Assembly: GCF_009931435.1 (NCBI RefSeq)
Contig: NZ_CP043414.1
Direction: 5' to 3' (one strand)
DNA: 64,000 nucleotides
From: Escherichia coli
GTDB taxonomy: Bacteria; Pseudomonadota; Gammaproteobacteria; Enterobacterales; Enterobacteriaceae
Each line of letters starts with the position of its first letter. Position 1 is the first letter of the stretch. Below are positions 3,001 to 6,000 of this stretch, piece after piece. A program made the position numbers.

Positions 3001-6000
3001 CGGGCTCTTACTATCCCGGAATGAGTGCGTTCAAGTAAAAGGTCTCGTTCAAATTCAGCGACTGCTGAAATTACTTGCATCATCATTTTTCCTGTTGGAC
3101 TGGTCAGGTCAATGCCCCCCAATGCTAAGCAATGCACTCTGATACCTGTTTCGGTCAGTTGTTCCACTGTTTTCCTGATATCCATTGCATTACAACCAAG
3201 GCGATCCAGTTTTGTCACAATCAATTGATCACCACATTTCAGGCGAGCAAGCAACCGGTTAAAACCAGGACGCTCACTGGTTGCTGCTGAGCCGCTAATG
3301 TGTTCTTCGATTATTTGCTGAGGTTTGATTTTAAAACCTGCACTTTCGATTTCCCGGCGTTGATTTTCGGTGGTCTGATCCAGCGTTGATATCCGACAGT
3401 AAGCAAAAATTTGAGACATAGTGAGACTCTATACGAAATTGGTGTTCATATCATAATGCATCTCAGAAAATAATTATGATTATTTTTGTGCATATTTGTA
3501 TGTACACGTTCGAAAATAAACGAATGCGTATGCAACCCCGTAATTTTGGTGAGACCCAAAATCGATTTTGTGAAAAATGGCTTTAACTCGGTTTGTTTTT
3601 CGAGTTCCGGGCGGACTCAAGGAAGAAGAATAGTGTTGCGTGTTATTTTAACCAGATTTCAAGTTGTTTGGTCGTGGAAAAGTGGAGCAAAATGTTGTTA
3701 AAGTGGAAAAATGATAAAAAAGTAAGTTTATTATATTACATTTTACCATTTAAATTTTGGTTGTCTTTAAGAACTGATATCGCTGTTTGTAATAATTCTT
3801 TGTTATCCAGCCATGATTTTTTCTTTATGTTTCCTTCAATGTAATCAAGCAATGTTCTGGTATTGATAGGTCTTCCCTGTTTTGCTACTTCCACTACAGC
3901 ATCCCCTAGGATAATTCTTACTTCAGGAAGCTGCGCAGGGAACCACTTTAGGGTGTCTTTTGATTTCATGAAGATATTCCTTAAAATATTATTGATTTTC
4001 ATTGCGATATTGTATGTCTGATTCAGGATATGTTGACTTATACATCGGTTTTGTCTGGGTTATTGGATATGCCAATCCCTAATTTTATTAGGGCATGACT
4101 AAAAATGCTGAATATGATAAGGAGAGATGTGATTATCAGTATGCTGTTCATATAGCCTCGAATTAGTAATGTGTTATATATGATATAGTTGACAATTTTT
4201 ATCTTGGGTGTTCTTAAAGTTCGTAGATAAACATTGTCGTTTCAGGTATACAGGAATGCTAACAGGTGGCAGCAAAAATCAGGCGGTTTATGGCGCAAGC
4301 TGAAGCGGCAACTGCAAACTATCTTATGCAGAGACTCTACACGGATTGGGTTTAAAAGTATACATAGATAACAGTTTTTATCTGAAAAAGAAAAATATCA
4401 AGGTGATTTAGCCTATATGCCTTTGATGCGGAGGAATGAATGTGATGGGAGTGATGTATCTGAATAGTTGAAAAACCGCAGACACGCCTTATGCAAGAAC
4501 GTGCTGCGGTTGGCTGGTAAATTTTTCGATAGTGTGAGTATTGAATGATTTCCAGCCGTTCTTGATTTTACGCATAAATCCATGAAAAAACTACTTATCT
4601 GTTGGGGAGTTTTTTTGGGGCATATATGGGACAGAAATAGGCCCCAGATAGACACTGAGATCGAACTTAGGATGCTTTTTAAAAAATGCAACTATCTGAA
4701 AAAACCTAGAAAACGCCAAGGAAACCACAGGATGGGAAAAAACACCTGTGAATCATGGATTTCCAGTTATATTCGCTCGGCGCAGCGTTAGTGTTTCATG
4801 AAATATTTTTTCCTGAATCATCAACGGCAATGGCGTTAATTCTGGCAATGGGAACCTACGGTGCAGGTTATGTGGCGCGTATTGTCGGAGCATTTATTTT
4901 CGGCAAAATGGGCGACAGAATCGGGCGTAAAAAAGTGCTCTTTATTACCATCACTATGATGGGGATCTGTACCACCTTAATTGGTGTGCTGCCGACCTAT
5001 GCACAAATTGGTGTGTTTGCGCCAATTTTGCTGGTGACGCTGCGTATTATTCAGGGGCTGGGGGCAGGCGCGGAAATTTCCGGTGCCGGTACGATGCTGG
5101 CGGAATATGCGCCAAAAGGTAAGCGCGGAATTATCTCCTCATTTGTTGCTATGGGGACTAACTGCGGAACCTTGAGCGCAACGGCAATCTGGGCCTTTAT
5201 GTTCTTCATTCTCAGTAAAGAGGAACTGTTGGCATGGGGATGGCGTATACCGTTCCTGGCGAGCGTTGTCGTGATGGTCTTTGCTATCTGGTTGCGTATG
5301 AATCTGAAAGAAAGCCCGGTCTTTGAGAAGGTTAACGACAGCAACCAACCGACAGCAAAACCTGCACCTGCTGGTAGCATGTTCCAGAGCAAATCCTTCT
5401 GGCTGGCAACAGGGCTGCGTTTTGGTCAGGCTGGTAACTCAGGTTTAATTCAGACTTTCCTTGCAGGCTATTTAGTGCAGACGTTATTGTTTAACAAAGC
5501 AATTCCAACAGATGCATTGATGATCAGTTCGATTCTCGGCTTTATGACCATTCCGTTCCTTGGTTGGTTATCCGATAAAATTGGTCGCCGGATCCCGTAT
5601 ATTATTATGAATACCTCTGCGATTGTGCTGGCGTGGCCAATGCTTTCTATCATCGTAGATAAAAGCTATGCCCCGAGCACCATTATGGTTGCACTGATTG
5701 TGATTCATAACTGTGCGGTGCTGGGATTATTTGCTCTGGAAAACATTACCATGGCAGAAATGTTCGGCTGTAAAAATCGCTTTACCCGGATGGCCATTTC
5801 TAAAGAAATTGGTGGTCTTATCGCTTCCGGTTTTGGTCCTATCCTGGCGGGTATTTTCTGCACCATGACGGAATCCTGGTATCCGATCGCCATTATGATC
5901 ATGGCATATTCAGTGATTGGTTTAATCTCTGCGCTGAAAATGCCAGAAGTGAAAGACCGTGATTTAAGTGCACTGGAAGATGCCGCGGAAGATCAACCGC

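Follow-up and report, generated by a model that had tools for sequence, protein, structure and literature searches.

The window, i.e. the whole stretch of 64,000 nt of Escherichia coli DNA that was analysed, contains one end of a lambdoid prophage that sits between rspAB and the genes ydfJ′ and ydfI (Table 1). The DNA to the left of the junction is colinear with the right end of lambdoid phages, with the order stf-tfa-pin-ydfK-ynfT. The mechanically called open reading frame of ydfK runs on to 4002, and neither a Pfam nor an NCBIfam match was found for the ydfK product. The small gene ynfT is also annotated in K-12, in AR_0077, and in Rac-like prophages. To the right of the junction, ydfI is cut off from rspAB by the prophage, as is ydfJ′. 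The GC content is 36-40% across 4003..4754, compared to 45-52% within ydfJ. The initial annotation had described this interval as AT-rich and poor in open reading frames. The first attribute was confirmed, the second only in part, as the interval contains ynfT, a hairpin element, and the P arm of the phage attachment site.

Table 1. Features at the prophage end and in the adjoining chromosome (positions in the window)
Feature	Position	Strand	Basis
pin, PinQ/PinR-type serine invertase, phage right-end module	2829..3419	-	Pfam Resolvase 2.5e-36 and HTH_7; the colinear K-12 gene is pinQ in RefSeq
ydfK (RefSeq cold shock protein YdfK)	3736..3969	-	ORF list; colinear K-12 ydfK, 234 nt
ynfT, YnaM/YnfT-family small protein, 37 aa	4038..4151	-	NCBIfam NF041477, 63.9 bits, cut-off 35
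Conserved hairpin, followed by UUUUUC on the minus strand	4474..4511	-	-20.7 kcal/mol, z = -4.7
Conserved lambdoid boundary element containing the hairpin	4476..4565	.	Common to Qin, Rac and CRE10 types and to lambda, phi80 and HK106
attP P arm, now the prophage side of attR, ~140 bp	4613..4752	+	Kept in every prophage type found at the site
Two TGGGRCA repeats (4616-4622, 4627-4633), 11 bp spacing, candidate integrase arm-type sites	4616..4633	+	Repetition in the P′ arm, conservation, position
In-frame stop codon (TGA), separated from the ATG by one codon	4749..4751	+	Sequence reads TGA ATC ATG
att core (attP/attB identity segment)	4753..4763	+	Four-way comparison of attP, attB, attL and attR
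ydfJ′, 5′-truncated MHS-family transporter gene, retaining codons 29-455 of the full-length gene	4755..6038	+	ORF list, Pfam, TIGR00883, comparison with intact allele
ydfI, mannitol dehydrogenase family, next gene downstream of ydfJ′	6128..7588	+	ORF list and colinear annotation

The ydfJ′ product has 427 aa and begins with MDFQLYSLGAAL, the first residue of which corresponds to Met29 of a 455-aa protein. It matches Pfam MFS_1 at 2e-37 and TIGR00883 (MHS-family MFS) with 453.5 bits, above the cut-off of 443.45; intact YdfJ scores 462.9 bits with the same profile. For comparison, the intact ydfJ of strain AZ153 (L003 3924..5291, 455 aa) directly follows rspB, MTIEKHERSTKDLVKAAVSGWLGTALEF precedes MDFQLY, and the start codon is found 28 codons upstream. 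The start of the open reading frame at MDFQLY, as initially annotated, is thus the start of a truncated gene. The orthologues in Citrobacter, Enterobacter, Lelliottia, Leclercia, and Pantoea have lengths of 455-461 aa and all carry the full N-terminus, i.e. none of them begins at this methionine. The 28 residues lost from YdfJ′ comprise a variable tail (residues 1-11) and the nearly invariant segment D12-F28, where helix 1 begins; this segment is at least 90% conserved among 14 aligned full-length sequences (intact E. coli and 13 from other sources). The match to TIGR00883 covers profile positions 7-400, and positions 1-6 are missing. Based on hydropathy, helix 1 is located at roughly residues 13-46 of intact YdfJ, and its hydrophobic core (residues 29-46) is retained. 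The proposal that the first transmembrane segment had been replaced by prophage DNA was therefore not borne out. AlphaFold2 models of intact YdfJ had pLDDT values of 41 (single sequence) and 46 (alignment of 15 sequences, 81-99% identical), too poor for defining the boundaries of helix 1, and a sequence search found no PDB relative at E ≤ 1e-5. An N-terminal extension of YdfJ′ encoded by phage DNA is not possible because of the in-frame TGA. RefSeq lists ydfJ as a pseudogene missing the N-terminus in K-12, AR_0077, CRE10, SD134209, and PSS-15.

The match to the intact allele breaks off just upstream of the ATG, within a few bases. An alignment of the empty site with the two prophage junctions and with attP of the free phages mEp460_ev081 and Tritos placed the crossover inside the 11-bp segment TTATGGATTTC, which is common to attP of mEp460 and Tritos and to attB of AZ153. 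In the window the core reads TCATGGATTTC, and it reads TTATGGATTTC elsewhere; among the compared prophage ends, only that of the window has the T>C substitution at 4754. If one gap is allowed, the core match reaches 4749 (TGAAT). The left flank is of the phage type (GTGAATT) at the ydfJ-side junction and of the bacterial type (TTGAATTT) at the rspB-side junction. Both hybrid junctions, B-O-P′ and P-O-B′, thus exist, the ydfJ-side junction in the window and the rspB-side junction in K-12, AR_0077, and CRE10. The integrase end of the window's own prophage lies outside the window, and attL, int, and xis were read in related genomes only. With high confidence, a Qin/mEp460-type lambdoid prophage inside ydfJ has its right junction (attR, P-O-B′) in the region 4003..4800. 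This agrees with the initial annotation, which had put the prophage end close to 4755 and had suggested searching for the breakpoint and a core repeat by alignment with ydfJ of prophage-free strains.

An alignment of five prophage ends revealed that their homology starts at TGGGGCATATATGGGACA and continues into the core, and the stretch 4603..4763 is also matched by records of Stx phages. Several prophage bodies, i.e. Qin-like, CRE10-type, and NleG/dinI-type prophages as well as Stx phages, have this P arm and core at their end. The Stx2a phage record LC727840.1, considered in the search for a divergent P′ arm, was discarded, as the DNA at its left end is chromosomal and unrelated. TGGGRCA pairs are found at -137/-126 in the P arm and at +70/+81 in the P′ arm, the latter inside the 3′ end of int, with equal spacing and orientation, and no further copies occur in 650 bp of attP. 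All five prophage ends have an identical block in the P arm, while the P′ arm was seen in near-identical copies only. The position of the P-arm pair corresponds to the annotated Int site 1 of lambda (-141..-122), and a match to the IHF consensus is present at +38.

Four free lambdoid phages, mEp460_ev081, Tritos, HannyBb, and PhiR42_1, carry the sequence 4530..4763 of the window at 97-99.6% identity. In mEp460_ev081 and Tritos attP is contiguous, and the region runs pin-ydfK-P arm-core-P′ arm-int-xis-exo. The free phages continue after the core with the P′ arm and int, whereas the window continues with ydfJ codon 32 onward. Genes for a 426-aa tyrosine-type recombinase and an excisionase adjoin the core in AR_0077, CRE10, mEp460, and Tritos (these genes are outside the window), and intact int and xis are located beside rspB in AR_0077 and CRE10. 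The recombinase matches models of Xer-type tyrosine recombinases, the best at 3e-23, which is below the cut-offs of those specific models. Across the two prophages and the two free phages Int is 99% identical, and the P′ arms differ by two bases over ~130 bp.

The phage very probably entered by site-specific recombination catalysed by a tyrosine integrase, at an attB within ydfJ codons 26-31. Judging from motif repetition, conservation, and position, Int would bind the TGGGRCA pairs of both arms and IHF would bind at +38 in a lambda-like intasome. The phage brings no replacement 5′ end, and ydfJ is split into a stub of 28 codons, beside rspB at the far end outside the window, and a body of 427 codons. 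The Met29 start of ydfJ′ falls within the att core by chance. The far prophage end is expected to read rspB, ydfJ codons 1-31, AAGAGTCAT and onward, and int; in related genomes, the 5′ codons of ydfJ indeed survive at the other prophage end, beside rspB. A fresh integration of mEp460 or Tritos would be expected to recreate the junction TGAATTATGGATTTC followed directly by CAG.

The truncation of ydfJ is already known, from RefSeq for K-12 and from a report according to which the 5′ end of ydfJ was the insertion site of Qin and the gene lost its promoter and 28 N-terminal codons (PMC6379469, 2019). The initial annotation had also pointed to K-12 Qin, and the junction in the window is indeed identical to that of K-12 apart from one substitution. 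The cryptic prophage Qin (Kim) of K-12 shares attB, the junction, and the terminal genes pinQ-ydfK-ynfT with the window, and in both cases the 427-codon remnant of ydfJ is followed by ydfI, ydfZ, rspR, and ydfG. The window differs from K-12 in its private substitution at 4754 and in a longer tail-fibre region. In K-12, 20 kb of Qin remain, and IS2 truncates its int; of the prophage under study only the right end is seen in the window. In the K-12 chromosome Qin stands between rspR and rspAB, and the transcript of the latter is 2.3 kb long (PMC8249747). The att site resembles that of lambda in having a short identical core, a P arm of ~140 bp, a distal repeat pair at the position of lambda P1, and, as predicted from sequence, P′ repeats that overlap the 3′ end of int and an IHF-like site between the core and these repeats. 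It differs from lambda att in the core sequence and length (11 bp versus 15 bp), in the arm motif TGGGRCA, and in the location of attB, which is inside a gene and not, as for lambda, in the gal-bio intergenic region. Site-specific integration into an open reading frame of E. coli is also known for e14 (icd) and Rac (ttcA); e14 leaves a duplicated pseudo-icd segment and Rac alters only the N-terminus of TtcA, while Qin truncates YdfJ (PMC6379469). The Qin-type phage brings no 5′ end, and the in-frame TGA precedes the ATG, so that ydfJ is truncated. The changes made by e14 and Rac probably leave icd and ttcA functional.

No Shine-Dalgarno-like sequence was found in the 20 nt before the ATG of ydfJ′, and a consensus scan did not reveal a promoter-like site on the plus strand between 4003 and 4755, with overall counts at the shuffle/background level. 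Because of these two results, ydfJ′ is probably poorly expressed and non-functional, and an outward prophage promoter driving ydfJ′ was rejected on the basis of the scan. Another explanation would be that a truncated YdfJ′ is made from the ATG at 4755 or from a downstream start, acts as a transporter, and is maintained by selection. The reading frame is unbroken in all six truncated alleles examined, with a pN/pS of about 0.01 among them (0.00-0.02), and the comparison of the window with K-12 yielded 32 synonymous changes and one non-synonymous change in ydfJ′. The protein clears the TIGR00883 cut-off and keeps the hydrophobic core of helix 1, and the differential expression of K-12 ydfJ after DicC induction suggests that some transcript exists. 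Nevertheless, we regard a functional YdfJ′ as unlikely. Recent insertions would account for the low pN/pS, the D12-F28 segment, which hardly varies among full-length sequences, is missing, initiation and promoter signals were lacking in the sequences scanned, and RefSeq annotates a pseudogene. In addition, the original 5′ end is absent from ydfJ′, which is also separated by the prophage from rspAB and from the promoter mapped upstream of rspA (PMC8249747). The ydfJ of the window genome is a prophage-split pseudogene, a result of little weight beyond annotation. By-products of the analysis are the definition of the att core at the base level, a candidate arm-site motif for the integrase of Qin/mEp460-type phages, and evidence that ydfJ is an integration hotspot.

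Empty attB sites, defined by a 401-bp attB probe that is covered to 80% or more, are present in 2006 of 5426 complete E. coli genomes; in each of four such genomes that were inspected rspB is followed by a 455-aa ydfJ. About 63% of the complete genomes have an occupied or disrupted site, and the whole configuration 3700..5300 is present in 1973 of the 5426. The latter value, the near-identity of the junction with that of K-12, and the equal order pin-ydfK-ynfT would be compatible with a single ancient insertion, common to the window and K-12 Qin and passed on by vertical descent, after which the transporter gene was dead, as the initial annotation had suggested. In a tree of flanking genes, albeit of ten genomes only, split and intact alleles of ydfJ are interspersed: the window groups with Z1323, which has an intact ydfJ (40 differences), and is far from K-12 (84 differences), the nearest neighbour of which is HS30-1, also with an intact gene. 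Vertical descent predicts that occupied alleles are monophyletic and that prophage and flanks have diverged to similar extents, which is not the pattern in these ten genomes. The window and K-12 differ at 8 of 1926 positions in the prophage (0.4%) and at 84 of 2834 positions in the adjoining chromosome (3%; p = 9e-12), i.e. about 7-fold less in the prophage; for AR_0077 the values are 6 of 1926 and 46 of 2834 (p = 6e-6). Independent integrations would yield an identical junction, because free phages carry the identical attP, and Int is 99% identical across different prophage bodies. Furthermore, the 32 synonymous changes and one non-synonymous change mentioned above make “ancient” and “dead” incompatible with one another. 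A single ancient insertion is therefore improbable, and we infer that ydfJ is a repeatedly used integration hotspot, although the polyphyly of occupied sites could also reflect precise excision or homologous recombination of the whole region. Repeated use of ydfJ bears on how the occupancy of this locus is read in E. coli population genomics and on whether strains can use the rspAB-ydfJ-ydfI pathway. RspA, RspB, and YdfI probably act on L-gulonate, fructuronate, and mannonate, and the substrate of the pathway is probably L-gulonate or a related hexuronate. It is conceivable that the prophage is a reversible interrupter (active lysogeny), whereby excision by Int and Xis restores the ydfJ frame and rejoins the co-directional genes rspA-rspB-ydfJ-ydfI, so that occupancy toggles a sugar-acid pathway. 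With a core common to attP and attB, excision would regenerate an exact attB, AR_0077 and CRE10 have undamaged int and xis genes, and intact alleles neighbour occupied ones in the flank tree. Ordinary gain and loss fits this pattern equally well, the K-12 integrase is truncated by IS2, and no sign of regulated excision without lysis was seen, making such a switch very unlikely.

The hairpin upstream of the P arm is part of an element that is more widely distributed than this attachment site. None of the shuffled sequences folds as stably, and a compensatory change is present in CRE10 (CACG/CGTG to AACG/CGTT). With the U-rich stretch that follows it, the hairpin is a plausible intrinsic terminator of leftward transcription. 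Two other assignments were rejected. The similarity to the Rfam family CssrB (RF02799) reached 25 bits, compared with a gathering threshold of 76, and only the terminal (3′) hairpin matches. The sib/tI retroregulator of lambda was dismissed, as the lambda homologue of this element is found at 24162-24240 between ea47 and ea31, 3.5 kb from attP; the resemblance to sib is one of position, in mEp460-type phages only. An open reading frame of 69 aa that spans the junction (4582..4791) was likewise rejected as a gene, because it has a 1-bp frameshift deletion in CRE10 and no family match. The boundary element is 86% identical to the lambda segment just mentioned. Rac-like prophages share the pin-ydfK-ynaM module with the window up to 4513 or 4527, where their copies of the element stop, and the homology to the CRE10 type starts at 4476. 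In SD134209, a dinI-like gene displaces the element.

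The 5'-truncated ydfJ (ydfJ', codons 29-455) encodes an MHS-family MFS transporter (Pfam MFS_1, 2e-37; TIGR00883, 453.5 bits, cut-off 443.45) and is followed by ydfI, ydfZ, rspR (ydfH), and ydfG. The GC content is 45-52% within ydfJ versus 36-40% in 4003..4754. The segment 3700..5300 was compared by megablast with 5426 complete E. coli genomes, which yielded several match classes, and in many genomes the similarity begins only at 4749. In strain AZ153 (locus L003), ydfJ has 455 aa and lies directly after rspB, an arrangement shared by three further intact alleles. The N-terminus of intact YdfJ reads MTIEKHERSTKDLVKAAVSGWLGTALEF, followed by MDFQLY. 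Orthologues of Citrobacter, Enterobacter, Lelliottia, Leclercia, and Pantoea were checked for a start at this methionine, but they have 455-461 aa; residues 1-11 are variable, and D12-F28 are at least 90% conserved. Intact E. coli alleles and orthologues of other genera thus start upstream of MDFQLY, confirming the truncation proposed in the initial annotation.

Features at the right prophage junction and sequences of the att sites
Feature	Coordinates	Strand	Remarks
Phage tail-fibre gene	498..2156		leftmost of the listed features
tfa (tail-fibre assembly)	2156..2731		full, 191 aa
Pin-type invertase	2829..3419	minus	
ydfK	3736..3969	minus	
AT-rich stretch			750 bp, between ydfK and the ydfJ' ORF
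ynfT	4038..4151	minus	37 aa; NCBIfam NF041477 above cut-off
Conserved hairpin	4474..4511	minus	-20.7 kcal/mol, z = -4.7; UUUUUC follows
Boundary element enclosing the hairpin	4476..4565		~90 bp
ydfJ' ORF	4755..6038		begins MDFQLY
attB			...GCGCTTGAATTTATGGATTTCCAGTTATATT
attP			...ACACCTGTGAATTATGGATTTCAAGAGTCAT
attR (window)			...ACACCTGTGAATCATGGATTTCCAGTTATATT
attL			...GCGCTTGAATTTATGGATTTCAAGAGTCAT

The prophage junction is real and well defined, and it was already known. According to PMC6379469, Qin integrated at the 5' end of ydfJ, and the gene lost its promoter and 28 N-terminal codons. PMC3032704 gives ydfJ as the integration site of Qin in E. coli W, K-12, B, and Crooks, and PMC2608844 lists a lambda-like prophage of SE11 that lies between ydfJ and rspB. 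RefSeq annotates ydfJ without the N-terminus as a pseudogene. A base-level core, a candidate arm motif, and evidence for recurrent use were not found in these three papers; all three are routine extensions of known facts.

The breakpoint was located by aligning sequences of four kinds: empty sites, junctions on the ydfJ side (window, K-12) and on the rspB side (K-12, AR_0077), and the contiguous attP of the free lambdoid phages mEp460_ev081 and Tritos. The core is an ungapped 11-bp identity segment, TTATGGATTTC (4753..4763), in which the crossover must lie because the left flanks differ between the two junctions. The C at 4754 is private to the window. The core includes the ATG at 4755, which corresponds to Met29 of intact YdfJ; because of an in-frame TGA at 4749..4751, phage DNA cannot lengthen the ydfJ' ORF. 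In related genomes the missing 28 codons are retained beside rspB, joined to the P' arm (the int side of attP); the rspB-side end of the window's prophage lies outside the window. One end of a Stx2a phage record (LC727840.1; loci L017 and L018) is a ydfJ junction whose P arm (the prophage side of attR) and core are the same. At the left end of the record, GC-rich chromosomal DNA of unrelated sequence stands in place of rspB, suggesting a composite prophage or a rearrangement.

An invariant block, TGGGGCATATATGGGACA, forms the distal edge of the P arm and has two copies of TGGGRCA, which are spaced by 11 bp and located at -137 and -126 relative to the core. In the P' arm the motif likewise occurs twice, equally spaced and oriented; these copies, at +70 and +81, are within the 3' end of int. 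There is an IHF consensus at +38. The layout matches that of the annotated Int sites of lambda (P1, -141..-122; P' sites overlapping the int 3' end), and by this analogy the repeats are candidate arm-type Int sites. AR_0077 and CRE10 have an intact 426-aa tyrosine integrase and an excisionase beside rspB; the K-12 integrase is truncated by IS2. Among AR_0077, CRE10, mEp460, and Tritos, Int is 99% identical, and the nearly identical P' arms differ at two bases in ~130 bp.

The initial annotation had also proposed an ancient insertion shared with K-12. This is not supported by the occupancy of the site, the flank tree, the break in divergence at the junction, or the existence of living phages with the same attP. 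The site is intact in 2006 of the 5426 genomes, and 1973 have the full configuration of the window; the remaining ~1447 have neither the intact site probe nor this configuration, and inspected examples have other prophage right ends. In a neighbour-joining tree of the 2.8 kb ydfJ'-ydfI flank from only ten genomes, the six truncated and four intact alleles are interspersed: the window is nearest to the intact allele of Z1323, with 40 differences; K-12, at 84 differences, is distant from it and has intact HS30-1 as its nearest neighbour. Window and K-12 differ at 8/1926 positions in the prophage versus 84/2834 in the flank (Fisher p = 9e-12), and window and AR_0077 at 6/1926 versus 46/2834 (p = 6e-6). 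Because present-day phages carry exactly this attP, any new integration would yield the identical junction and truncation. Precise excision or regional recombination could contribute to the pattern. For 4200..7600, the best match in the collection has 99.2% identity and only seven records reach at least 99%, so the window's lineage is not closely represented in it and may belong to Shigella or to an atypical branch of E. coli. In TUM14759 (H87, NZ_CP128877.1, 2477054..2481792), the ydfJ remnant also has an ISVsa5 (IS4-like) insertion.

ydfJ' is probably dead. It lacks the conserved D12-F28 segment, no Shine-Dalgarno-like sequence precedes its ATG, and no promoter-like site was found on the plus strand in 4003..4755. 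The prophage also cuts it off from rspAB and from the promoter mapped for rspA; according to PMC8249747, the K-12 rspAB transcript has a length of 2.3 kb, and RspR binding is confined to the region upstream of rspA. Continued function would, in contrast, agree with the score above the TIGR00883 cut-off and with an intact ORF in all six truncated alleles (pN/pS 0.00-0.02), but low pN/pS values are expected if the insertions are recent and are therefore no argument for function. A further point for function is that residues 29-46, the hydrophobic core of helix 1, are kept. To call the first transmembrane segment replaced overstates the loss. Both AlphaFold runs on YdfJ had low confidence, so that helix boundaries cannot be fixed from them, and no solved relative was found.

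The stretch 4003..4754, initially described as AT-rich and ORF-poor, is indeed AT-rich but not featureless, as it contains ynfT, the hairpin element, and the P arm. The hairpin, which shows a compensatory change in CRE10 (CACG/CGTG to AACG/CGTT), likely terminates leftward transcription. Rac-like prophages have DNA in common with the window up to the boundary element, ending at 4513 or 4527, and CRE10-type prophages from 4476 onward; the element, which the Qin, Rac, and CRE10 types have in common, sits exactly at the point at which homology between different prophage types switches. It is also present in lambda (24162-24240, between ea47 and ea31), phi80, HK106, and others, and accounts for a sub-threshold match to Rfam CssrB, a Shigella sRNA family. 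The element may serve as a module boundary or as a terminator; an analogue of sib/tI was considered, but the location of the lambda homologue between ea47 and ea31 argues against homology with sib. All prophage types at the ydfJ site (Qin-like, CRE10-type, NleG/dinI-bearing, and Stx-phage) can be aligned from 4613 to the core. SD134209 has a dinI-like gene insertion just to the left of 4613. In NleG- and Stx-type prophages (loci L006, 3603..3845, and L007, 3492..3578), such a gene separates the boundary element from the P arm and directly adjoins the invariant TGGGGCATATATGGGACA block on its left.

The tail-fibre region beside the Pin invertase (498..2731) differs from loci L005 (5410..8889) and L015 (14698..18532) despite otherwise near-identical prophage ends, and AR_0077 and 24A16CRGN010 have only a fragment of tfa, which is full in the window, together with other tail-fibre ORFs. 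These differences fit Pin-mediated inversion or cassette exchange. Long overlapping Arg/Pro/Gln-rich ORFs at the left edge of the window (52..537, plus; 91..492, minus), inside the tail-fibre gene, are probably spurious and reflect a repetitive coding region of collagen-like type. On the plus strand there are two full-length RNA-family matches, one to Rfam IS009 in the 3' part of tfa (2499..2697; 221 bits, gathering score 117) and one, within the chromosomal DNA of the window, to STnc560, an Hfq-binding sRNA family (14095..14309; 275 bits, gathering score 55).
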